Below, one piece after another: positions 11,800 through 62,890 of a stretch of 64,000 nt of DNA. The DNA comes from Escherichia phage vB_EcoM_G2248. The stretch lies in sequence record MK327932.1. One strand, 5' to 3'. The notes beneath the pieces were generated by a model. It had not been told where the DNA came from. It saw only the letters and a program-made list of their open reading frames with translations, and made no database searches. The translations under genes were made by a program, and so were the position numbers. Numbering within the stretch: the stretch's first letter is position 1; each line of letters starts with the position of its first letter.

Positions 11800-12003
11800 T
11801 TATAGCTCAAATTTCATGAAAGTTCCTACACTTTCATTTTCATTCTCTCCGTTTTCATCTAAGCCAAATTTGTAGACACTACCATCTGGCGATGTGTAAG
11901 AGAATACACGAAAACGGCCTACCGAATCAAGTTCTGTAAATTCATATTCTTTTCCGGCTTCAAAAAGTGCATATGTGCTTTTAAGACATTTCATCGTAAT
12001 CAT
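11800..12003 (-). CDS. hypothetical protein
   Basis: 67-aa ORF, start overlaps upstream stop (ATGA). Confidence 0.45.
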   Translation of the reverse strand: MITMKCLKSTYALFEAGKEYEFTELDSVGRFRVFSYTSPDGSVYKFGLDENGENENESVGTFMKFEL

Positions 12004-12143
12004 TTAAGCGCCACCGACAACAGAATGAGAACTACACCAACATACATTGTGATCTCGGATAACTTTTCTGTTTTTGTTTTGTGTCCAGATAATCCGAAAA
12101 CAACAACACCGATAATAGCGGACAGCAAGCCAACGATAAACAT
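12000..12143 (-). CDS. small membrane protein (47 aa)
   Basis: untracked ORF MFIVGLLSAIIGVVVFGL...; single TM segment; stop overlaps next ATG. Confidence 0.35.
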   Translation of the reverse strand: MFIVGLLSAIIGVVVFGLSGHKTKTEKLSEITMYVGVVLILLSVALK

Positions 12144-55780: not shown

Positions 55781-56356
55781 TTATTTTGGATCTGGGAAAT
55801 TCAATAGAGCATATTCTCCATAAAATTTCCTAGCTGCATTATCATAAGCGATTGCAGCTTCGATTTCTGTGTCATATTGTCCAAGAACATGTCTTTGTAG
55901 GTTGACCATTATACTAGCTCTCCATTTCTTACGCAAATCCTTCCTGTTACACTTACTAACACCCTTATACACACTAGAAAACTTTTTAGACTTCTTCTTT
56001 CTATTATGTTGATTTTGCGCGTCGGTTGCCTCCCTAAGATTTGGAGGATTGTTATTAGCAGGATTACCGTCAATATGATCAATTAATCTAACTTGCGTCC
56101 CATGTTCTAGAAACCAAACAACCCTATGCACGAATAGATGAACTCTAGGAAGACCGTCATCTCTACTATGCCAAAATCTAAGATGACCATCTTTATTTGT
56201 TCTGACTTTAACTAAATCGCCGTGTTTATATCTACTCCCTAATGGTCGTCCTTTGATAGCTTTACTATCGACTCTATAATATAAGATACCCTCTATATGA
56301 GCATATCTAAGTTTTATCTCGTTTTGTAGGGATTCATCCCAATATTTAAAAGCCAT
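55781..56356 (-). CDS. HNH homing endonuclease with C-terminal AP2 DNA-binding domain
   Basis: 191 aa; HNH motif IDHIDGNPANNNPPNLREATDAQNQHN; AP2-like YKGVS...WRASI...YDNAARKFYGEYALLNFP; AT-rich. Confidence 0.75.
   Translation of the reverse strand: MAFKYWDESLQNEIKLRYAHIEGILYYRVDSKAIKGRPLGSRYKHGDLVKVRTNKDGHLRFWHSRDDGLPRVHLFVHRVVWFLEHGTQVRLIDHIDGNPANNNPPNLREATDAQNQHNRKKKSKKFSSVYKGVSKCNRKDLRKKWRASIMVNLQRHVLGQYDTEIEAAIAYDNAARKFYGEYALLNFPDPK
55781..56356 (-). mobile_element. free-standing HNH-AP2 homing endonuclease gene
   Basis: domain architecture typical of phage homing endonucleases; compositional shift; own SD and a hairpin upstream. Confidence 0.5.
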
Positions 56357-56401
56357 TTTATAATCCTCACAAAGCCAGCGATTAAGCTGGCTTGATTTTA
56401 G

Positions 56402-56791
56402 TTATACCGGGTCTGGATATACCTTTTTATCGAGTTCCATATGCGGTCCGTCTTTAAAAGTAACCCAATCAACACCGCAGATAACAGGAACACCCAATTC
56501 TCGACCAGCTTGTTTAAATGCATCCGCGATCATGCGGTAGTATTTCATGTTCCATGTATCCTTATCTTTCGGATACGCTACAACGTCAACCGCGAAACCG
56601 TGAAGATGACGAGATTTCATAGTCTTAGATTTACCTTCCGCAACATATTTCTTTTGCGTTTCTAGACTACGTACACCTTCCGTAATACCAAAATCGACCG
56701 GAGTCAGTTCTAACGCACGATGAACGACTTTTACCAGGTCAGGATGCACACCAACAAGCCGATCTTTGCTTCTTTGAGATAATTTAAACAT
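56402..56791 (-). CDS. peptidase M15-type cell-wall peptidase (candidate endolysin)
   Basis: 129 aa; zinc-ligand pattern SRHLHGFAVD ... DGPHME as in L-Ala-D-Glu peptidase endolysins. Confidence 0.65.
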   Translation of the reverse strand: MFKLSQRSKDRLVGVHPDLVKVVHRALELTPVDFGITEGVRSLETQKKYVAEGKSKTMKSRHLHGFAVDVVAYPKDKDTWNMKYYRMIADAFKQAGRELGVPVICGVDWVTFKDGPHMELDKKVYPDPV

Positions 56792-56819
56792 TATTCACCC
56801 CCTTTGTGAGTGATAATAT

Positions 56820-57011
56820 TTAGATTCCGGCGATCCTGCATAGAGTTCTTGTATTAGCACCAATCAGGATCGCATTAACGACAACCATTCCCCAATCAAC
56901 CCACTGATTATTATAAATGCTAAACCCGTTTGCAAGACCAAATACAAGCATTCCGGTACACATACTCAGAGCAATAATCAACATCACGGTAAAACCAAAT
57001 GCAAATTTCAT
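56820..57011 (-). CDS. small membrane protein
   Basis: 63 aa, two TM-like segments. Confidence 0.45.
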   Translation of the reverse strand: MKFAFGFTVMLIIALSMCTGMLVFGLANGFSIYNNQWVDWGMVVVNAILIGANTRTLCRIAGI

Positions 57012-57012
57012 A

Positions 57013-57279
57013 TTATTTTCCTTTTCTCTGTTTACGTTTATAAAAGTAATACATTACCTCATCACGTCCGGTGATCCAACATGCTAGGGCGGTAAACAGG
57101 TTTACAATTCCCAACACACCTACTGACGCGGCGCTGTCAACAGACATAGGAACAGTAAAGGCCATAGCTAACATAGCAACGCCACAAATGACATTAAGCA
57201 CCATTATAATAAGACCGAAGAAAACCATTGTCAATCCTCCGACACAAGAAAACCAACAATCACGCCAGTGATAAGACAT
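57013..57279 (-). CDS. small membrane protein
   Basis: 88 aa, hydrophobic, basic C-terminus. Confidence 0.45.
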   Translation of the reverse strand: MSYHWRDCWFSCVGGLTMVFFGLIIMVLNVICGVAMLAMAFTVPMSVDSAASVGVLGIVNLFTALACWITGRDEVMYYFYKRKQRKGK

Positions 57280-57422
57280 GATGCGCCGCTAATCAGACAA
57301 CCCGCACCAAGTGATTCCCACCAGATCAGAGAAGCGACAATAACACAGAATCCCCATACTACCGCAATCACAACATAGGCAAGGGTCGCCCAAAACATAT
57401 ATTTGTTCATAATAAATCCCAT
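57231..57422 (-). CDS. small membrane protein
   Basis: 63 aa, hydrophobic. Confidence 0.4.
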   Translation of the reverse strand: MGFIMNKYMFWATLAYVVIAVVWGFCVIVASLIWWESLGAGCLISGASCLITGVIVGFLVSED

Positions 57423-57595
57423 TCACCAAACAAATAAGAAAAAAGCCATATCAACAGAAACGAGGCAATTGATCCGGCAAGCAAAATGATATTAGAGAAT
57501 CCGCCGTCTATCCAGGCGACAAAACAGAATACGCCAGTATAGAAGCATAAACCCATTACAAAGCATACTATAAGCAACCATAGACAAAACGCCAT
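57407..57595 (-). CDS. small membrane protein
   Basis: 62 aa, hydrophobic; GGAGGG SD. Confidence 0.45.
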   Translation of the reverse strand: MAFCLWLLIVCFVMGLCFYTGVFCFVAWIDGGFSNIILLAGSIASFLLIWLFSYLFGEWDLL

Positions 57596-57639
57596 AGAAA
57601 GCCCTCCATCGAGATAAATTAGTGCGGGTAGGGGACTGC

Positions 57640-57798
57640 ACTACCCGCTTTGTTAATCATCGCAGAGCGTGTTCTAGAACGATTCCACACCAACCGCTAA
57701 CCACACCAAAACACACAGCAACAAGCAGATTCATTCGGTCTTTTGGAATCATCGCAAACAGAACAACACCCACACAGAAAGCCATCACCATTGAAGTT
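57640..57798 (-). CDS. small membrane protein (about 52 aa)
   Basis: untracked ORF MVEQMLTSMVMAFCVGVVLFAM...; coordinates approximate. Confidence 0.3.
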
Positions 57799-57817
57799 AA
57801 CATTTGTTCAACCATTA

Positions 57818-58156
57818 TCACACCTTTAAAGTCATAGACGCATAAACATTAATGCCAGGCCAGTTAGGATCGCAATTATACTCAACATCCCACAAATAAA
57901 GCGGTTTAGATGTATCAGCCAAGTTTTTAAAATCTTCTACCCACATTTCAAGGCTATATGATGGATAAACTAGGCTATCATATCCGCCGTAACGTTGGCC
58001 TACTGGTCGGTCAGTAAAAACTACATCAAGATCCGGTAATTCTTTTTCAAGGATAACCGCCAGCGCATAAATCAGACTGTCTTCCTTGTTACGCTGCCGA
58101 AGGACCGTTGTCAGTTGGTTTTTCTGGTTCACTAGCAAGCACCTCCACATTTTCAC
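57818..58156 (-). CDS. hypothetical protein
   Basis: 112-aa ORF; true start likely internal (overlaps upstream ORF). Confidence 0.4.
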   Translation of the reverse strand: MKMWRCLLVNQKNQLTTVLRQRNKEDSLIYALAVILEKELPDLDVVFTDRPVGQRYGGYDSLVYPSYSLEMWVEDFKNLADTSKPLYLWDVEYNCDPNWPGINVYASMTLKV

Positions 58157-58409
58157 AGAATGAAATTTTCACAGACACAATTTTACCATAAGTGAAGAAT
58201 GAATATACATTATCGAGATATTCAACGTCACCTACAATCACATCAAACTGAGGATCAGCCACCGCCGCAACATATTCTACCAGTTCATCAAGAGAATGCA
58301 ACTTAATTTCATCAATTCGGCTGTATTTGGTTGCATCTTTGATTTTAAAACCACGTTCTTTCAGCTTATCAATTAGAATTTCACGCGGAGTTTCAAACAG
58401 TTTGCTCAT
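58089..58409 (-). CDS. hypothetical protein
   Basis: 106-aa ORF. Confidence 0.45.
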   Translation of the reverse strand: MSKLFETPREILIDKLKERGFKIKDATKYSRIDEIKLHSLDELVEYVAAVADPQFDVIVGDVEYLDNVYSFFTYGKIVSVKISFCENVEVLASEPEKPTDNGPSAA

Positions 58410-58430
58410 AATATAATCCTCACATTAAAT

Positions 58431-58631
58431 CTAAAATTTGTTAACGACGAATTGCATAATTAGACTAATCACAAACATTGCAAACCAAGTATAAATGCAA
58501 CAGATAAAAGCTACATACAATTCAATCTGGTCAGAGAATACACCGGGTAAAAGCATTAGCAAAATAACAACAGTAAAAACGCTAGCGATACCCGCAACAA
58601 AACCAATATCATTTTTACTAATCGTCATCAA
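58431..58631 (-). CDS. small membrane protein
   Basis: 66 aa, two TM-like segments. Confidence 0.45.
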   Translation of the reverse strand: MMTISKNDIGFVAGIASVFTVVILLMLLPGVFSDQIELYVAFICCIYTWFAMFVISLIMQFVVNKF

Positions 58632-58825
58632 GTCACCGTTTTGTAAAGAAACACAATAAAATCCCAGACAAAAAAGACAGTGAAAATAATCATCGTCAAG
58701 ACAATAAACACTGTCAGATTTTCATCGTTAGTTAATTCATGACCGTCCATCCATATAATCACCAGATAAAACATCGAAATCAAGGAGGCGAATACCAAAT
58801 TATAAAACTCTTCCTTTAATGACAT
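58628..58825 (-). CDS. small membrane protein
   Basis: 65 aa. Confidence 0.45.
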   Translation of the reverse strand: MSLKEEFYNLVFASLISMFYLVIIWMDGHELTNDENLTVFIVLTMIIFTVFFVWDFIVFLYKTVT

Positions 58826-58826
58826 A

Positions 58827-59009
58827 CTACACCTCGTCGCGGCTTAAGTCAACAGCAATTGCATACAGCATAATGAATATGCTAGCCGATCCGAGAATCA
58901 ATACACCCTCACATTTTGAAACTCGCTCATCAAAATGTAACATTATCCATCCGAGGATGTTAAAGGCGCAGACCGCGCCTATGTTCGCTAACCAATTAAT
59001 CTTTTTCAT
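58827..59009 (-). CDS. small membrane protein
   Basis: 60 aa. Confidence 0.4.
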   Translation of the reverse strand: MKKINWLANIGAVCAFNILGWIMLHFDERVSKCEGVLILGSASIFIMLYAIAVDLSRDEV

Positions 59010-59017
59010 AATATACC

Positions 59018-59344
59018 TTAGAAAGAAACAGTTTTCAAGAAATCCAGATTTTTAGTACCGAAAACAGAAAAGTAGTGTTTTCCTTTTTCGGTTTTAGAGA
59101 AAGCGATTGTCTTCTCTACATGGTGACGGAAGCCAGACAGACGATCACCCAGGTCAAGGCGGCAAGCGTAAGTAGTGCCGTTTTCGAAAGTAACCTCGAT
59201 TTGAGTTTTGTCATATTCGCTTTCATAGGCTTTTGCTGCCGCGTCCTGTGCTTTACGCTCGAAGTCTTCGAAGTGGAATACTTCGTTTGCGTTAGCGAAT
59301 ACAGAAGATTCAGAGAAGATAACTTTAACAGATACTGGTTTCAT
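59018..59344 (-). CDS. hypothetical protein
   Basis: 108 aa; GGAGTATCAAAATG start; promoter at 59387-59415. Confidence 0.5.
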   Translation of the reverse strand: MKPVSVKVIFSESSVFANANEVFHFEDFERKAQDAAAKAYESEYDKTQIEVTFENGTTYACRLDLGDRLSGFRHHVEKTIAFSKTEKGKHYFSVFGTKNLDFLKTVSF

Positions 59345-59386
59345 TTTGATACTCCTTAGTAGTTCGTGTTTCGTTTCGATGGGTGT

Positions 59387-59415
59387 ATTATGCTATACAC
59401 CCTCTCTCGTGTCAA
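59387..59415 (-). promoter_or_regulatory. early promoter
   Basis: TTGACA-N17-CATAAT then ACACCCATCGAAACGAAACAC leader. Confidence 0.55.
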
Positions 59416-59423
59416 CAACTTTT

Positions 59424-59612
59424 TTAGTCTTTTTTCATAATTTCTAGAGCAGTTTCTACAGCACCTTTCCAACCTTCCCACATAATGGACATAGTAAGGA
59501 AGTTAAAGCACCCGCAGGAATCAACCTTTTTAGAGATAAACCATTCTACAAACGCTTCGCTCATACCATGCTCTTTAGCGGATTCGCGTAATTGTTCAAT
59601 TTGGTCTTCCAT
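59424..59612 (-). CDS. hypothetical protein
   Basis: 62-aa ORF. Confidence 0.4.
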   Translation of the reverse strand: MEDQIEQLRESAKEHGMSEAFVEWFISKKVDSCGCFNFLTMSIMWEGWKGAVETALEIMKKD

Positions 59613-59634
59613 AGTATCACCTCAACACTTAACG

Positions 59635-59829
59635 TTATTCAAACTCAAACGGTCTATTCATCCTATTGTAAAAGTACATATAACAAGCATAGTTATGTTT
59701 TGGTTGTACCGTATCAGATAGACACGCTTTTACAGCCTCGCGGTCCGATGGGTCTACACCCTCAGCTTTAAGTAATGCTAAAATCTGGTTATAGCGTACT
59801 CTTAGTTGTACTAATGGTTTATCCCCCAT
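59635..59829 (-). CDS. hypothetical protein
   Basis: 64-aa ORF. Confidence 0.4.
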   Translation of the reverse strand: MGDKPLVQLRVRYNQILALLKAEGVDPSDREAVKACLSDTVQPKHNYACYMYFYNRMNRPFEFE

Positions 59830-59838
59830 ATTACCCCC

Positions 59839-60060
59839 TTATAGTTGATCAGCGATGTAAGCGTGACAAGCGCGGAGTTTCATTAATGCACTACCTTTCA
59901 CTTCGCCTACGATGTTCATAACTTCTAAGCGGTCGGATGGATTCATCTTAGAGCACCAGATCTGGTTAGCCAATTCCAGTTTACTCATATTTGGTTCCAT
60001 CTCAAACAGTTCACGCTCAAAGTCGATAATTTCTTTTGCTGCGTCTTTAAAGTTAATCAT
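59839..60060 (-). CDS. hypothetical protein
   Basis: 73 aa; GGGAGAATCAAAATG start; promoter at 60090-60118. Confidence 0.5.
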   Translation of the reverse strand: MINFKDAAKEIIDFERELFEMEPNMSKLELANQIWCSKMNPSDRLEVMNIVGEVKGSALMKLRACHAYIADQL

Positions 60061-60089
60061 TTTGATTCTCCCGTTTCGTTGATGGTTGT

Positions 60090-60118
60090 ATTGTAGGGGA
60101 GTTATCCTCCCCTGTCAA
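60090..60118 (-). promoter_or_regulatory. early promoter cassette with spacer palindrome
   Basis: TTGACA-GGGGAGGATAACTCCCC-TACAAT. Confidence 0.55.
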
Positions 60119-60126
60119 CACTTTTA

Positions 60127-60312
60127 TCAGAAATATGCAATATAGTTTGCCAGTCCTACAGAGTCATCATTCGGCATTGCTTTTACTGCCAGTTCAAACC
60201 CTACTTCAACTTTCTGTTTAGCGGATTCTTCGTTATAACCCCAGATTACCAGAATAGCTACTACGTTTTCTTTGCTTACTGCTTTCAGTGCTTTAGTGAT
60301 GCGACGTGCCAT
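60127..60312 (-). CDS. hypothetical protein
   Basis: 61 aa; GGAGAATCAAATTATG start; promoter at 60359-60387. Confidence 0.5.
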   Translation of the reverse strand: MARRITKALKAVSKENVVAILVIWGYNEESAKQKVEVGFELAVKAMPNDDSVGLANYIAYF

Positions 60313-60358
60313 AATTTGATTCTCCGTTTAAGAAAGTGTGTTTCGTTTCGATGGGTGT

Positions 60359-60387
60359 ATTATGCTATAGGCCGGATCTGGTGTCAA
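60359..60387 (-). promoter_or_regulatory. early promoter
   Basis: TTGACA-N17-CATAAT then ACACCCATCGAAACGAAACAC leader. Confidence 0.55.
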
Positions 60388-60415
60388 CAACTTTTTTAAA
60401 AAAATTTTAGGCAAT

Positions 60416-60439
60416 AAAAAAGCCACTCCGAAGAGTGGC
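60416..60439 (-). terminator. rho-independent terminator ending the structured RNA region
   Basis: hairpin GCCACUC-UUCG-GAGUGGC + U6. Confidence 0.6.
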
Positions 60440-60584
60440 TTATAGGGAAGGTAGCGAATCTTCCTTGTCTCCAACCTGCTAGCGGCCTAGCAAGTGAATG
60501 CTTTAGCGTACCGGATCGCCCATACGCTGCAATAAATGCGGCTAGGTGACGTCCAAATCATTCTAACCGCGCTGTCTTTAGTTC
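60416..60584 (-). ncRNA. candidate structured small RNA between a late-promoter motif and a terminator
   Basis: about 170 nt without convincing ORF; four consecutive hairpins (8-bp GCGGTTAG/CTAGCCGC, 6-bp AGCGTA/TACGCT, 8-bp CTTGCTAG/CTAGCAGG, 5-bp GGAAG/CTTCC) then terminator GCCACTC-CGAA-GAGTGGC + U-run; TATAAATA at 60590-60597 upstream. Confidence 0.35.
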
Positions 60585-60588
60585 ACTA

Positions 60589-60807
60589 TTATTTATATCG
60601 CTTTCTCTCGCGACGTTTTTGATCTTCTTCCTTGATAGAGTTAAATGCATCAAAAAGACACATGACACTAATAATAAACATAACCGTATTTTCTACGGTA
60701 TCCCACGGCTTCGCATCAGTACAGATCCCCCAAACGGTAAGAAATGCAAATAAGGCAGAAGAGATCACAAGAATGATACTTGCTAAAATATAAAAAGTCA
60801 TTTTCAT
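60589..60807 (-). CDS. small membrane protein
   Basis: 72 aa, hydrophobic N-terminus, basic C-terminus. Confidence 0.45.
   Translation of the reverse strand: MKMTFYILASIILVISSALFAFLTVWGICTDAKPWDTVENTVMFIISVMCLFDAFNSIKEEDQKRRERKRYK
60590..60597 (-). promoter_or_regulatory. candidate T4-type late promoter (TATAAATA)
   Basis: minus-sense TATAAATA overlapping the stop of ORF 60589-60807, directly upstream of the structured non-coding region. Confidence 0.35.
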
Positions 60808-60998
60808 GGTTTTACCTCAATTCTTCGATATTCATCACACATCCACGCAGTAAGCAAGAATCCCAACACATAAGCAACAAAATACGTTAATGCTTCTTCT
60901 GGTTCGGTGCTATGCGCCATCATCAGACCAGCGAGAAAGGTCTTAACAATTACATTTAAAATAATTAGCCACGCAAATAATTTCATCGTTTGCCCCAT
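60804..60998 (-). CDS. small membrane protein
   Basis: 64 aa. Confidence 0.45.
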   Translation of the reverse strand: MGQTMKLFAWLIILNVIVKTFLAGLMMAHSTEPEEALTYFVAYVLGFLLTAWMCDEYRRIEVKP

Positions 60999-61222
60999 TT
61001 CGGTCGAGTCTTTTCAAACTTATACATTCCGTAACAATCTCGAATCATCCACGTAACAAGAGCACCAGTCAACACAGACAATACACAGAAGAAGTAAAAC
61101 GGTCCGGTTGCATTATCAACATGAGCAAGCCAGGTAAAGAAAACACATGCAAGGAATGTAAAGAACATCATAAAGCACAAGAAAGCGAAATATTTTATAC
61201 TACTCATAGCGCCACCATACAA
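60983..61222 (-). CDS. small membrane protein
   Basis: 79 aa. Confidence 0.45.
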   Translation of the reverse strand: MYGGAMSSIKYFAFLCFMMFFTFLACVFFTWLAHVDNATGPFYFFCVLSVLTGALVTWMIRDCYGMYKFEKTRPKWGKR

Positions 61223-61310
61223 CAGATCATAAGAAACCCCAACGCAATAAGAATTGCATCAAATTTAGTGAACTCAGGTCCACCTATCAACATCATTCGT
61301 TCCTGTTCAT

Positions 61311-61553
61311 TCATAGATCACAGAGCCATCTTACAGCACCACATAAAGCGATCAAAAGACTAGGTATAAACGAGACTAAAACAAGACTACAAAAATCATC
61401 TAAGGTAACGCCGGAATAGCTACCTACTGTAACAACACCGATCATCAGACACAGAAAGAAAACAAATGCAATCAGAAACAAAGTATTGCTAAACAGTTTA
61501 GTGATCATTAGACACCCCACGACGATCAATTTCAAAAACTTTTTTATCATCAA
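61311..61553 (-). CDS. small membrane protein
   Basis: 80 aa, three hydrophobic segments. Confidence 0.45.
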   Translation of the reverse strand: MMIKKFLKLIVVGCLMITKLFSNTLFLIAFVFFLCLMIGVVTVGSYSGVTLDDFCSLVLVSFIPSLLIALCGAVRWLCDL

Positions 61554-61701
61554 CGAAGCATGTCACAACTGCATCGTTGACTTCCGCAAATTGTTGTGTT
61601 ACCCACTTAAGGTCAGAGCGAAACAATGTTCTATTAATAACAAATGTTTTACCGCTCTTATCCTTACCCATAAATTTTGCTTTAACCATATCAAATTCCA
61701 T
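61498..61701 (-). CDS. hypothetical protein
   Basis: 67-aa ORF. Confidence 0.4.
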   Translation of the reverse strand: MEFDMVKAKFMGKDKSGKTFVINRTLFRSDLKWVTQQFAEVNDAVVTCFVDDKKVFEIDRRGVSNDH

Positions 61702-61710
61702 ATTATCACC

Positions 61711-61869
61711 TTATTTGCTAATCGCTAAACCCAATCCGAAGAGAGCACCCGATGCTACAGTATACCCGAAAGTTTCAAATGCAGTAAAGATATCTAAGCC
61801 ACCAGCTAACAGAGTTGCAGTAAACAGAGTACCAGCTACGAACATAAAAGTTTTACCGATAAATTTCAT
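61711..61869 (-). CDS. small hydrophobic protein (52 aa)
   Basis: untracked ORF MKFIGKTFMFVAGTLFTATLLAGG...; GGAGAATCAAAATG start; promoter at 61901-61929. Confidence 0.4.
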   Translation of the reverse strand: MKFIGKTFMFVAGTLFTATLLAGGLDIFTAFETFGYTVASGALFGLGLAISK

Positions 61870-61900
61870 TTTGATTCTCCTTTCGTTTGTTTGTGGGGGT

Positions 61901-61929
61901 ATCTTACTACCCCCGTTTCATGTTGTCAA
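61901..61929 (-). promoter_or_regulatory. early promoter cassette, stem-loop enclosing the -10
   Basis: TTGACA-N17-TAAGAT within GGGGGTAGTAAGATACCCCC. Confidence 0.5.
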
Positions 61930-61935
61930 CTATTT

Positions 61936-62310
61936 TTAAGAATATTTTACTTCGTCTACAATGTCTTTCATGACATTGATTTCCATTCCGGTCAGAACAC
62001 GTTGGAACATGTGCTGCACATACGCTTTCAGGTATTCATTTGATGGCTTACTATCGAAAGTCTTTTTAGTGTAGTAGTCATCACCGAAAGCTACTGTAAT
62101 TACATTTTCGTCGTCGTTCCAAGCGATATAAGCAAATTTGCCGTTATCCCAGAAGCGAGCACTAATTGCTACTTTTGTTGAATCGAATCCTACTTCGCTG
62201 TGAGATTCAAGAACTACTTGCGTACCAGTTTCTTTATGAATGTAGTAGCGGGATACTAAGTCAAAGTTACGGGTGTAGTGACATTCGAATTTATCTTTAA
62301 ACATCATCAT
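61936..62310 (-). CDS. hypothetical protein
   Basis: track ORF overlaps promoter 62348-62376; ATG with GGAGAATCAAAATG gives MMMFKDKFECHYT... Confidence 0.5.
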   Translation of the reverse strand: MMMFKDKFECHYTRNFDLVSRYYIHKETGTQVVLESHSEVGFDSTKVAISARFWDNGKFAYIAWNDDENVITVAFGDDYYTKKTFDSKPSNEYLKAYVQHMFQRVLTGMEINVMKDIVDEVKYS

Positions 62311-62347
62311 TTTGATTCTCCTAAGTGTGTTTCGTTTCGATATGTGC

Positions 62348-62376
62348 ATTATGCTATAGTCGTTTATGGTTGTCAA
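62348..62376 (-). promoter_or_regulatory. early promoter
   Basis: TTGACA-N17-CATAAT then GCACATATCGAAACGAAACAC leader. Confidence 0.55.
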
Positions 62377-62385
62377 CACCTAAAA

Positions 62386-62412
62386 ACAAAAAACCCCGAA
62401 AAATTTTCGGGG
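62386..62412 (-). terminator. rho-independent terminator after the Acb1-like gene
   Basis: hairpin CCCCGAAAA-UU-UUUUCGGGG + U-run, 8 nt after stop. Confidence 0.6.
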
Positions 62413-62419
62413 TATAAAA

Positions 62420-62890
62420 TTACAGTTTGGTCGTCCACTCCAGGTCTAGATCTTCGACATACTCATGAGATCGGACAATCTCTAAATCGAACTCTAGGTC
62501 AGTGCCAAATTTACGCGCACCAACATCATAAGAAAGCGTGATATGCGGTACATATTCAGGATAATCCCACGTCGCACCTAAAGCAGTGCCGATATCGTGT
62601 CTGAATTGCATGTAGTCGCTTTCAAATGCCAGCACAAGCGCATTAGTACCGGATTGAGTTTCAAACACTTTCAGATGGCATAGAGAGCCTAAGAACTTCT
62701 CCCCTTCTTCTGGGATAAACGGAACATAGACACGAGAATATAAGATAGTGCTATGCAGTTTATCACGAGGAACGGCATTAGGCAGATCGTAGAACTCCTG
62801 CAATTTTTCAATGCGGTCTAGTGTATCCTCAGTGAATTTAACCGCCGCATATGTACCTTTAACGGATTCTCTAAACGGGGTCATAATCAA
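62420..62890 (-). CDS. 57B: 2H phosphoesterase, Acb1/57B-like (anti-CBASS-type cyclic-nucleotide phosphodiesterase)
   Basis: 156 aa; two H-x-T/S-x motifs (HSTILYS, HITLSYD); position immediately downstream of 57A and 1 as T4 57B. Confidence 0.65.
   Translation of the reverse strand: MIMTPFRESVKGTYAAVKFTEDTLDRIEKLQEFYDLPNAVPRDKLHSTILYSRVYVPFIPEEGEKFLGSLCHLKVFETQSGTNALVLAFESDYMQFRHDIGTALGATWDYPEYVPHITLSYDVGARKFGTDLEFDLEIVRSHEYVEDLDLEWTTKL

Follow-up and report, generated by a model that had tools for sequence, protein, structure and literature searches.

The 64,000-nucleotide (nt) stretch of Escherichia phage vB_EcoM_G2248 analyzed here (sequence record MK327932.1), referred to below as the window, carries an array of 14 small hydrophobic open reading frames (ORFs), m1 to m14, all of which lie on the minus strand and encode products of 36 to 74 amino acids (aa). 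These ORFs are real protein-coding genes under purifying selection, and the clustering of small genes with transmembrane (TM) segments exceeds chance. Judged from sequence, the array comprises 14 mutually unrelated, genus-restricted, very small proteins, predicted to reside in the inner membrane and encoded in a plastic (“hyperplastic”) region, and the genes appear to form two compact operons, served by host-type early promoters, with translational coupling between some of the cistrons. Beyond this description of the genes as real, selected, clustered, hydrophobic, and downstream of early-type promoters, we infer any role from context.

Location and layout of the array

Bases 56300-62400 of the window align over their full length, at 96 to 97% identity, with published Krischvirus genomes (KMB43, FL04, RB49, Phi1, GEC-3S, and about 50 more), and on this comparison the source phage is a Krischvirus, i.e., an RB49-like, T4-type coliphage. 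The minus strand holds virtually all genes of the window, and its ORFs cover 92.5% of the sequence. The array occupies a plastic interval that extends from the endolysin gene (56402-56791) to dmd, 57B, 57A, and gene 1; the T4 counterpart of this interval contains e.1 to e.8, tRNA genes, and ipI. Three blocks can be distinguished, m1 to m5 (56820-57815), m6 to m8 (58431-59009), and m9 to m13 (60589-61508), with m14 (61711-61869) lying beyond dmd, and the array is broken by soluble genes at 57818-58409 and 59018-60312 and by dmd itself at 61498-61701 (Table 1). Neighboring cistrons overlap by 1 to 11 nt or are separated by 1 to 28 nt, the exceptions being a 61-nt gap between m5 and m4 and a 44-nt overlap between the soluble genes s2 and s1. 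Within the runs m12/m11/m10/m9, m8/m7/m6, and m4/m3/m2/m1, the spacing consists of 4-nt ATGA overlaps or gaps of 1 or 2 nt. Start codons of m1 to m14 were set by comparison with annotated relatives. The plus-strand AT skew of the region is +0.03 to +0.12, i.e., the coding strand is T-rich, and scans of the locus for tRNAs and Rfam families returned nothing above threshold.

The original prediction for this DNA, made from the letters alone, was of a dense cluster of at least 13 small hydrophobic proteins, and this is borne out, all five of the coordinate blocks that it listed holding strongly hydrophobic minus-strand ORFs. The blocks were placed correctly, except that an ORF of the right length given at 57640-57798 was shifted by 17 nt and truly lies at 57657-57815. 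The sizes it gave, 47 to 88 aa, were off because longest-ORF starts had been used; they need to be replaced by those stated above (or by a minimum of 29 aa, if m12 uses an internal start). Similarly, its range of one to three TM segments narrows to one or two per protein.

Predicted membrane topology and clustering

A Kyte-Doolittle test with a window of 19 residues predicts one or two TM helices in every one of m1 to m14; applied to the 11 soluble genes in between and around them, it predicts no helix. The predicted helices are confirmed by TMHMM on the RB49 orthologues, which gives two helices for all but one: in the table of Nolan et al. 2006 (PMC1524935, Additional file 2), two helices are listed for RB49ORF103c, 104c, 106c (entered twice), 107c, 110c to 112c, 118c to 120c, 122c, and 124c, and one helix is listed for 121c. 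The array thus accounts for 14 of the 21 novel RB49 ORFs with TM predictions in that table, two-thirds of them. In the RB49 orthologue of m1, for example, the helices span residues 5 to 27 and 37 to 54.

By hydropathy and charge, most m proteins are predicted two-helix hairpins with neutral or acidic loops. The C-terminal tails of m2, m9, m10, and m11 are rich in lysine and arginine (three to nine K/R residues), which argues for an N-in/C-in topology and implies that the hairpins would mostly have both ends in the cytoplasm. AlphaFold (AF2) predicts m2 to be a simple hairpin of two long helices, residues 2 to 25 and 30 to 69 (predicted local distance difference test score [pLDDT], 78), and the second helix and tail of this protein are nearly invariant across orthologues. 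In the set as a whole, C-terminal tails are slightly less variable than helices and loops.

TM-bearing genes make up 12 of 18 in the region and 7 of 102 elsewhere in the window (Fisher P = 6e-8). When the comparison is restricted to genes of up to 90 aa, the counts are 12 of 16 and 2 of 28 (P = 6e-6). Small TM ORFs number 18 in the reassembled RB49 genome, and 11 of them are located inside the single 5.1-kb stretch that corresponds to the array, a concentration matched in none of 5,000 label shuffles.

Selection and variation among isolates

Each m ORF is intact in 9 to 11 of 11 relatives. Ratios of nonsynonymous to synonymous polymorphism (pN/pS) for individual genes range from 0.09 to 0.78, with substitutions generally skewed to third codon positions. 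The pooled ratio is 0.31 in the annotated frame; reading the sense strand in its two shifted frames gives 1.03 and 1.57, and the soluble neighbors give 0.22. In a divergent metagenomic lineage (contigs of 170 to 175 kb, with pS up to 0.5), the genes occur in the same order, with omega values of 0.05 to 0.67. Inspection of the upstream sequences by eye revealed a Shine-Dalgarno-like purine-rich motif before 13 of the 14 ORFs; the exception, m12, starts with an ATG that shares bases with the stop codon of m13 (ATGA).

The hydrophobic genes evolve faster than their soluble neighbors, with aa identities in the divergent lineage of 34 to 99% for the hydrophobic proteins and mostly 88 to 100% for the soluble ones. 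Rates also differ within a block, m11 retaining 91 to 99% aa identity and m13 retaining 71 to 78%. Among individual genes, m1 is intact in all 11 relatives (pN/pS, 0.23), m11 is among the most conserved of the 14 (pN/pS, 0.10), and m9 is 65 to 96% identical in the divergent lineage, with an omega of 0.16 to 0.34. The pN/pS of m4 is 0.73 among close relatives and 0.21 to 0.36 in the divergent lineage, and PHB13 lacks the m4 start codon. The m8-m7-m6 portion of the query is unmatched in JSE and MIZ4/5, and tblastn with m7 against L015 gave no match. Because the ORFs are intact and under selection and single genes are lost from one isolate or another, the m genes are best described as real yet individually dispensable accessory genes.

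At the m6 site, two alleles sharing 34 to 36% aa identity occur between the same conserved neighbors, the second being found in L012, L013, and L015. On this sequence pattern, the divergence of m6 is an allelic replacement within an otherwise syntenic block.

Operons, promoters, and terminators

Five sigma-70-type promoters that match the consensus at 10 or 11 of 12 positions are predicted on the coding strand (62376-62348, 61929-61901, 60387-60359, 60118-60090, and 59415-59387), together with strong terminators at 62413-62393 and 60441-60420, and the promoters correspond to early promoters annotated in GEC-3S. The first operon would run from the promoter at 61929 through m14, dmd, m13, m12, m11, m10, and m9 to the terminator, and the second would run from the promoter at 59415 through s3, m8, m7, m6, s2, s1, m5, m4, m3, m2, and m1 and on into the endolysin gene. 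The leading cistrons have GGAG in the ribosome-binding site; according to a note in the annotation of RB49 regB, T4 RegB cleaves GGAG, and since RB49 encodes regB, early, transient expression is a reasonable inference. The T4-type late promoter sequence TATAAATA has a single exact occurrence in the region, at 60590-60597, and a scan of the region found no exact match ahead of the hydrophobic blocks or the endolysin gene.

A 61-nt promoter cassette is present in three copies and a 5′ untranslated region/Shine-Dalgarno cassette in four, and terminator-then-promoter pairs occur at 62413-62348 and 60441-60359. Promoter/stem-loop (PeSL) cassettes have been found to mediate module shuffling in RB49 and phi1 (PMC2839356). 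The locus has the makeup of such a module, with stem-loop and early-promoter cassettes around small ORFs and a gene content that varies between isolates, and the same repeated cassettes and isolate-variable content characterize the PeSL modules and hyperplastic regions described previously, as in RB49 and phi1 (Arbiol et al. 2010, PMC2839356; Comeau et al. 2014, PMC4122927). Both of these papers concern how modules shuffle, and in a term search of PMC2839356, membrane proteins and the ORFs considered here were not mentioned, the word “membrane” referring in each case to a filtration membrane.

Two additional elements were observed in these operons. At the m3/m2 junction (57206-57234, minus strand) is an 11-of-12 match to the sigma-70 consensus, TTGACA-17-TATTAT, which could be an internal promoter for m2, m1, and the endolysin gene or could be due to chance. 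The other is a noncoding gap of about 170 nt after m9 (60415-60600, minus strand) that begins at the TATAAATA sequence, which overlaps the m9 stop codon, and ends at the terminator at 60441-60420. Its predicted fold is unusually stable (minimum free energy, -63.9 kcal/mol; z = -3.9), with two compensatory pairs, and it is 93 to 98% identical in all 16 relatives, even in the lineage in which the m9 protein is only 65% identical. The sequence is single copy, matches no Rfam family, and is unlike T4 rnaC and rnaD, which are located in the syntenic T4 interval. We consider it a candidate conserved small RNA.

Homology searches

Each ORF matches one PHROG, end to end except in the case of m12, with E values of 1e-22 to 1e-54, and all of these families are labeled “unknown function” (PHROGs 15016, 15232, 16151, 19354, 16035, 15379, 21837, 16425, 15168, 15717, 15290, 15282, 17225, and 16462). 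tblastn searches with all 14 sequences against 50,697 phage records returned an identical set of 58 Krischvirus records. Searches with m14, m11, and m2 against 5.8 billion proteins yielded nothing but relatives at least 80% identical, truncated fragments aside; an exhaustive profile (hidden Markov model) search with m2 against 1.84 billion representatives found its own cluster only, and a Foldseek search of viral structures with the m2 model found only the Phi1 orthologue. By these searches, each m protein is an orphan family restricted to Krischvirus.

Comparison of m1 to m14 with Pfam, NCBIfam, and PADLOC gave no matches above threshold, the sole hit to a PADLOC defense model being that of m9 to a SLATT-type model (13 bits; E = 0.015). 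Direct comparison with T4 Imm, Imm.1, Sp, 61.1, 61.2, and 61.4 revealed no sequence resemblance to any m protein. When the proteins of the locus were compared with T4 e.2 to e.8 and trna.2 to trna.4 and with the holins and spanins of siphophage Sasha, again no m protein matched, and the sole matches to T4 and Sasha proteins in direct comparisons were those of Dmd, 57B, and the endolysin. Two possible origins of the array were rejected. A tandem paralogue family is ruled out by all-versus-all blastp and phmmer scores below 20 bits and by the different PHROG of every member, and a split or decayed large membrane protein is ruled out by concatenated blocks that match no Pfam or other multi-TM family.

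A possible role in exclusion or counter-defense

The array is interrupted by dmd, the product of which is 47% identical to T4 Dmd (Pfam Dmd on orthologues), and its upstream neighbor is 57B, the product of which is 47% identical to T4 57B (Pfam Acb1 on orthologues that are 95 to 99% identical). In the curated annotation of RB49, t (holin), rI, rI.-1, rIIA/B, and pseT.3 are present and imm, sp, and ac are not named. T4 Imm and Sp, used as tblastn queries against the complete RB49 genome, gave no credible match (best E value for Imm, 8.8).

Our tentative proposal, which we regard as quite possible while stopping short of calling it probable, is that the m proteins block entry of superinfecting phage DNA in the manner of Imm and/or inhibit membrane-embedded host defense effectors and that they are not lysis proteins. 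The m proteins would enter the host inner membrane within the first minutes after infection, and each would bind there to a membrane component, either of the host or of a competing phage that is trying to enter. Jointly they would act as accessory “interface” factors, such that DNA entry by the competing phage might be blocked in an Imm-like fashion and/or membrane-embedded host defense effectors might be neutralized. We make this suggestion because of the counter-defense neighbors (dmd and Acb1, with an LPD25-domain gene also nearby), the seeming absence of imm and sp, the restriction to one genus, the rapid divergence, and the turnover at the level of isolates. The original prediction had named superinfection exclusion, immunity, or lysis control: the picture of real orphan membrane proteins of no known family stands, and the early-operon setting beside dmd and Acb1 fits exclusion or counter-defense, whereas the part concerning lysis control is not upheld (see below).

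T4 Imm, a small early protein (83 aa), has the build of m2, m9, and m11, two hydrophobic helices followed by a basic C-terminal tail, and, according to an annotation note, acts in the inner membrane. The combination of two helices, an acidic loop, and a basic tail is found in m2, m9, m10, and m11 by hydropathy, by TMHMM on RB49 orthologues, and, for m2, by AlphaFold. In contrast to Imm, the m proteins have no Imm_superinfect Pfam match at an E value of ≤1, blastp gives nothing below E = 0.7, and the genome position is different. A likeness in gene order exists with T4 Spackle (sp, gene 61.3): in T4, with the order dmd-61.4-sp-61.2-61.1, dmd lies two genes from this envelope-targeted exclusion gene, and here dmd is embedded among predicted envelope-targeted small proteins in one early operon. 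Unlike the m proteins, Sp carries a signal peptide and is secreted to the periplasm; it has no TM hairpin and is not similar to any of them. Bacterial type I toxins and small membrane regulators such as Hok, TisB, AcrZ, and MgtS are of similar size, with one or two TM helices; the m proteins differ in having no Pfam or NCBIfam match and in being phage encoded in polycistronic early operons, and no antisense-RNA arrangement was seen, although no search was aimed at one.

Several points weigh against a role in exclusion or counter-defense. The m proteins show no homology to any characterized exclusion, immunity, or anti-defense protein in Pfam, NCBIfam, PHROGs, PADLOC, or the T4 set, and the early timing of array expression is predicted from promoter consensus only. 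To our knowledge, anti-defense proteins are almost all soluble, and we know of no exclusion system that needs as many as 14 distinct proteins. Papers searched on RB49, Krischvirus, PeSLs, and screens of accessory genes report no expression, localization, or phenotype data for this genus. Lastly, the colocation with dmd and Acb1 may reflect nothing more than a shared plastic region.

A more specific version of the proposal, which we consider distinctly unlikely, is that the coupled blocks m9 to m13, m6 to m8, and m1 to m5 represent a new class of membrane-embedded counter-defense or exclusion modules, in which sets of hairpins, assembled in the inner membrane, would either plug the path taken by the DNA of an incoming phage or neutralize pore-forming abortive-infection effectors.

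Other explanations for the array

The array might instead encode lysis or lysis-timing proteins of the holin, antiholin, or pinholin type, with m1 to m5 being what is left of, or a partner to, a lysis cassette acquired together with the M15 endolysin. m1 to m5 lie directly upstream of the endolysin gene (28 nt), and the Sasha endolysin, with which the endolysin shares 60% identity, is flanked by holin/antiholin proteins with one and two TM domains. m2, m9, and m11 resemble class II holins such as Sasha gp54 in architecture (about 70 aa, two TM segments, N-in/C-in, charged tail); m2 and m11 have weak, subthreshold Pfam holin matches (Phage_holin_3_5/3_6; E = 0.08 to 1, 10 to 13.5 bits versus cutoffs of 27 to 28), and m9 is 27% identical to Sasha gp54 over 59 aa (21.9 bits). 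However, none of the m proteins has a significant match to holin families or to Sasha gp52 or gp54, the promoters are of the early and not the late type, with no exact TATAAATA ahead of m1 to m5 or the endolysin gene, 9 of the 14 ORFs lie 1.6 to 5 kb from that gene, and a Slopekvirus phage with a related endolysin has no TM array alongside it. Lysis control is quite improbable because the T4-type holin t and antiholin rI (Pfam Antiholin), as well as rI.-1, are already encoded elsewhere in RB49, in genes separate from the array. Nonfunctional ORFs, arising by chance on a T-rich strand or left as debris of a larger membrane protein gene, are scarcely credible. A T-rich coding strand does favor hydrophobic codons, and the ORFs are very short, gene finders disagreeing on several of them. 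Against this, purifying selection is frame specific (0.31 versus 1.03 and 1.57), the ORFs are preserved at pS values of up to 0.5, every ORF begins with a start codon of its own, Shine-Dalgarno-like motifs precede 13 of the 14, and the concatenated blocks have no Pfam match; chance ORFs on the T-rich strand are ruled out by the frame-specific pN/pS and ORF conservation.

Two further explanations accept the genes as functional membrane proteins. One is that they are general modulators of host takeover, each tuning a host inner-membrane machine (a transporter, a protease such as FtsH, or a respiratory or division complex), in the way that small membrane proteins of bacteria do, to favor phage production and not to counter defenses or competitors, which we judge unlikely. 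Predicted early expression and membrane location would suit such a role, the conserved cytoplasmic tails suggest specific protein contacts, and the syntenic T4 interval, between 57B/gene 1 and the endolysin gene, also has uncharacterized ORFs with predicted TM segments (e.2, e.3, e.4, and trna.4), although these are only four, encode products of 102 to 130 aa (61 aa for trna.4), and are unrelated in sequence. However, restriction to one genus, rapid divergence, and losses in isolates suit arms-race factors better than partners of conserved host machines, and the linked neighbors are counter-defense genes. The other explanation, which appears rather unlikely, is that the proteins are subunits of one or a few phage hetero-oligomeric membrane complexes, the blocks (5 + 3 + 5 hairpins) being made in fixed ratios to form a multihelix channel or scaffold. 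The ATGA overlaps and gaps of 1 or 2 nt inside blocks, and the coinheritance of the blocks in all relatives examined, are what would be expected of such complexes. However, single members are lost while their neighbors are retained, evolutionary rates within one block are very unequal (m11 versus m13), and the concatenated blocks match no multi-TM family. Tight packing of genes is in any case the rule throughout the early regions of T4-type phages, as seen in the organization of the T4 genome.

Features of the locus and neighboring genes

Table 1. Genes and regulatory elements of the array and its surroundings (positions in the window)
Feature	Position	Strand	Length	Description
m1	56820-57011	minus	63 aa	2-TM hairpin; RB49ORF103c orthologue; borders endolysin gene on its upstream side; phrog_15016
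m2	57013-57228	minus	71 aa	2-TM hairpin; invariant basic C-tail KRKQRKGK; ORF104c orthologue; pN/pS 0.17
m3	57231-57410	minus	59 aa	2-TM; ORF105c orthologue; phrog_16151; pN/pS 0.20
m4	57407-57595	minus	62 aa	2-TM; ORF106c orthologue; stop overlaps m3 start (ATGA)
m5	57657-57815	minus	52 aa	2-TM; ORF107c orthologue; pN/pS 0.22; frameshift in pEJ01
m6	58431-58628	minus	65 aa	2-TM; ORF110c orthologue
m7	58628-58825	minus	65 aa	2-TM; acidic loop; ORF111c orthologue; start codon lacking in JK32 and W115
m8	58827-59009	minus	60 aa	2-TM; ORF112c orthologue; frameshift in FL04
m9	60589-60807	minus	72 aa	2-TM; highly charged C-tail; ORF118c orthologue; final gene of m14-dmd operon
m10	60804-60986	minus	60 aa	2-TM; 4-nt overlap on each side; ORF119c orthologue
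m11	60983-61207	minus	74 aa	2-TM; basic C-tail; ORF120c orthologue
m12	61204-61314	minus	36 aa	29 aa if start is 61293; single TM; ORF121c orthologue; phrog_15282 (36-residue profile)
m13	61311-61508	minus	65 aa	2-TM; ORF122c orthologue; start overlaps dmd end by 11 nt; omega 0.50-0.67
m14	61711-61869	minus	52 aa	Gly-rich; 2-TM by TMHMM; ORF124c orthologue; opens dmd operon; pN/pS 0.09
dmd	61498-61701	minus		Predicted soluble antitoxin against RnlA/LsoA; second gene of operon, amid hydrophobic ORFs; phrog_2102, E = 3.9e-31
Endolysin gene	56402-56791	minus		M15 L-Ala-D-Glu peptidase; phrog_465; directly downstream of m1 (28 nt)
57B	62420-62884	minus		Acb1-type 2H phosphodiesterase (against the cyclic-oligonucleotide-based antiphage signaling system, CBASS); upstream neighbor of array
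Predicted early promoter	61901-61929	minus		TTGACA-17-TAAGAT; heads m14-dmd-m13-m12-m11-m10-m9; promoter annotated at same site in GEC-3S
Predicted intrinsic terminator	60420-60441	minus		Closes m14-to-m9 operon; stem-loop half of PeSL cassette
Predicted early promoter	59387-59415	minus		TTGACA-17-CATAAT; heads s3(LPD25)-m8-m7-m6-s2-s1-m5-m4-m3-m2-m1(-endolysin); repeat families D1 and D2

In most Krischvirus records the 57B gene is labeled “57B,” “RNA ligase,” or “hypothetical,” and many public annotations are outdated. On the downstream side of the endolysin gene is a 191-aa homing-endonuclease ORF (55781-56356, minus strand), the orthologues of which are labeled “homing endonuclease” in KMB43 and FL04 and “pathogenesis-related transcriptional factor and ERF protein” (AP2 type) in JK32. 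This ORF is absent from RB49, Phi1, and GEC-3S, in which vs.8 or its orthologue abuts the endolysin gene.

The soluble gene s3 (59018-59344), which leads the operon carrying m8 to m1, encodes a “large polyvalent protein-associated domain 25” (LPD25; E = 3e-14). Domains of this kind usually belong to giant polyvalent proteins encoded by conjugative elements and phages. Soluble genes s5, s6, and s7, located among the hydrophobic blocks (59630-60322), consist of DNA common to unrelated siphophages: s7 (Pfam DUF7421) has 73 to 78% DNA identity to many coliphages of about 50 kb (tunus, damhaus, ADB-2, and pSf-1), and s5-s6 has 84% DNA identity to phage GaoY1-9D. This similarity points to recent horizontal exchange of these modules. 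Outside the region, a lone 47-aa ORF with two TM segments (12000-12143, minus strand) lies beside 61.1, in the interval between gene 41 (helicase) and gene 61 (primase). It is probably the orthologue of RB49ORF018c, and the same site carries dmd, 61.4, and sp in T4.

Conclusions

The ORFs of the array have been in GenBank since the RB49 record (AY343333), and 11 of them are labeled “putative membrane protein” in W115. Together with the 2006 TM table, these records mean that the array was already known as a feature. In the searchable literature, which covered RB49, Krischvirus, PeSLs, and screens of accessory genes, the cluster as such is not discussed, and there is no functional test of its ORFs. 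We therefore present the array, in one more isolate, as a reasonable lead for experiments and not as a new discovery. It is compact (14 candidates in 5 kb), naturally variable, and next to two validated anti-defense genes, and it is thus a convenient target for screening. If some of the proteins are intramembrane exclusion or counter-defense factors, the conflict of phages with their hosts and with one another would gain a layer that has been little explored, and it would become clear how RB49-type therapeutic phages cope without imm and sp. Should the coupled blocks prove to be hairpin modules of this kind, they would be the membrane-level counterpart of the soluble anti-defense proteins Dmd and Acb1 encoded beside them.

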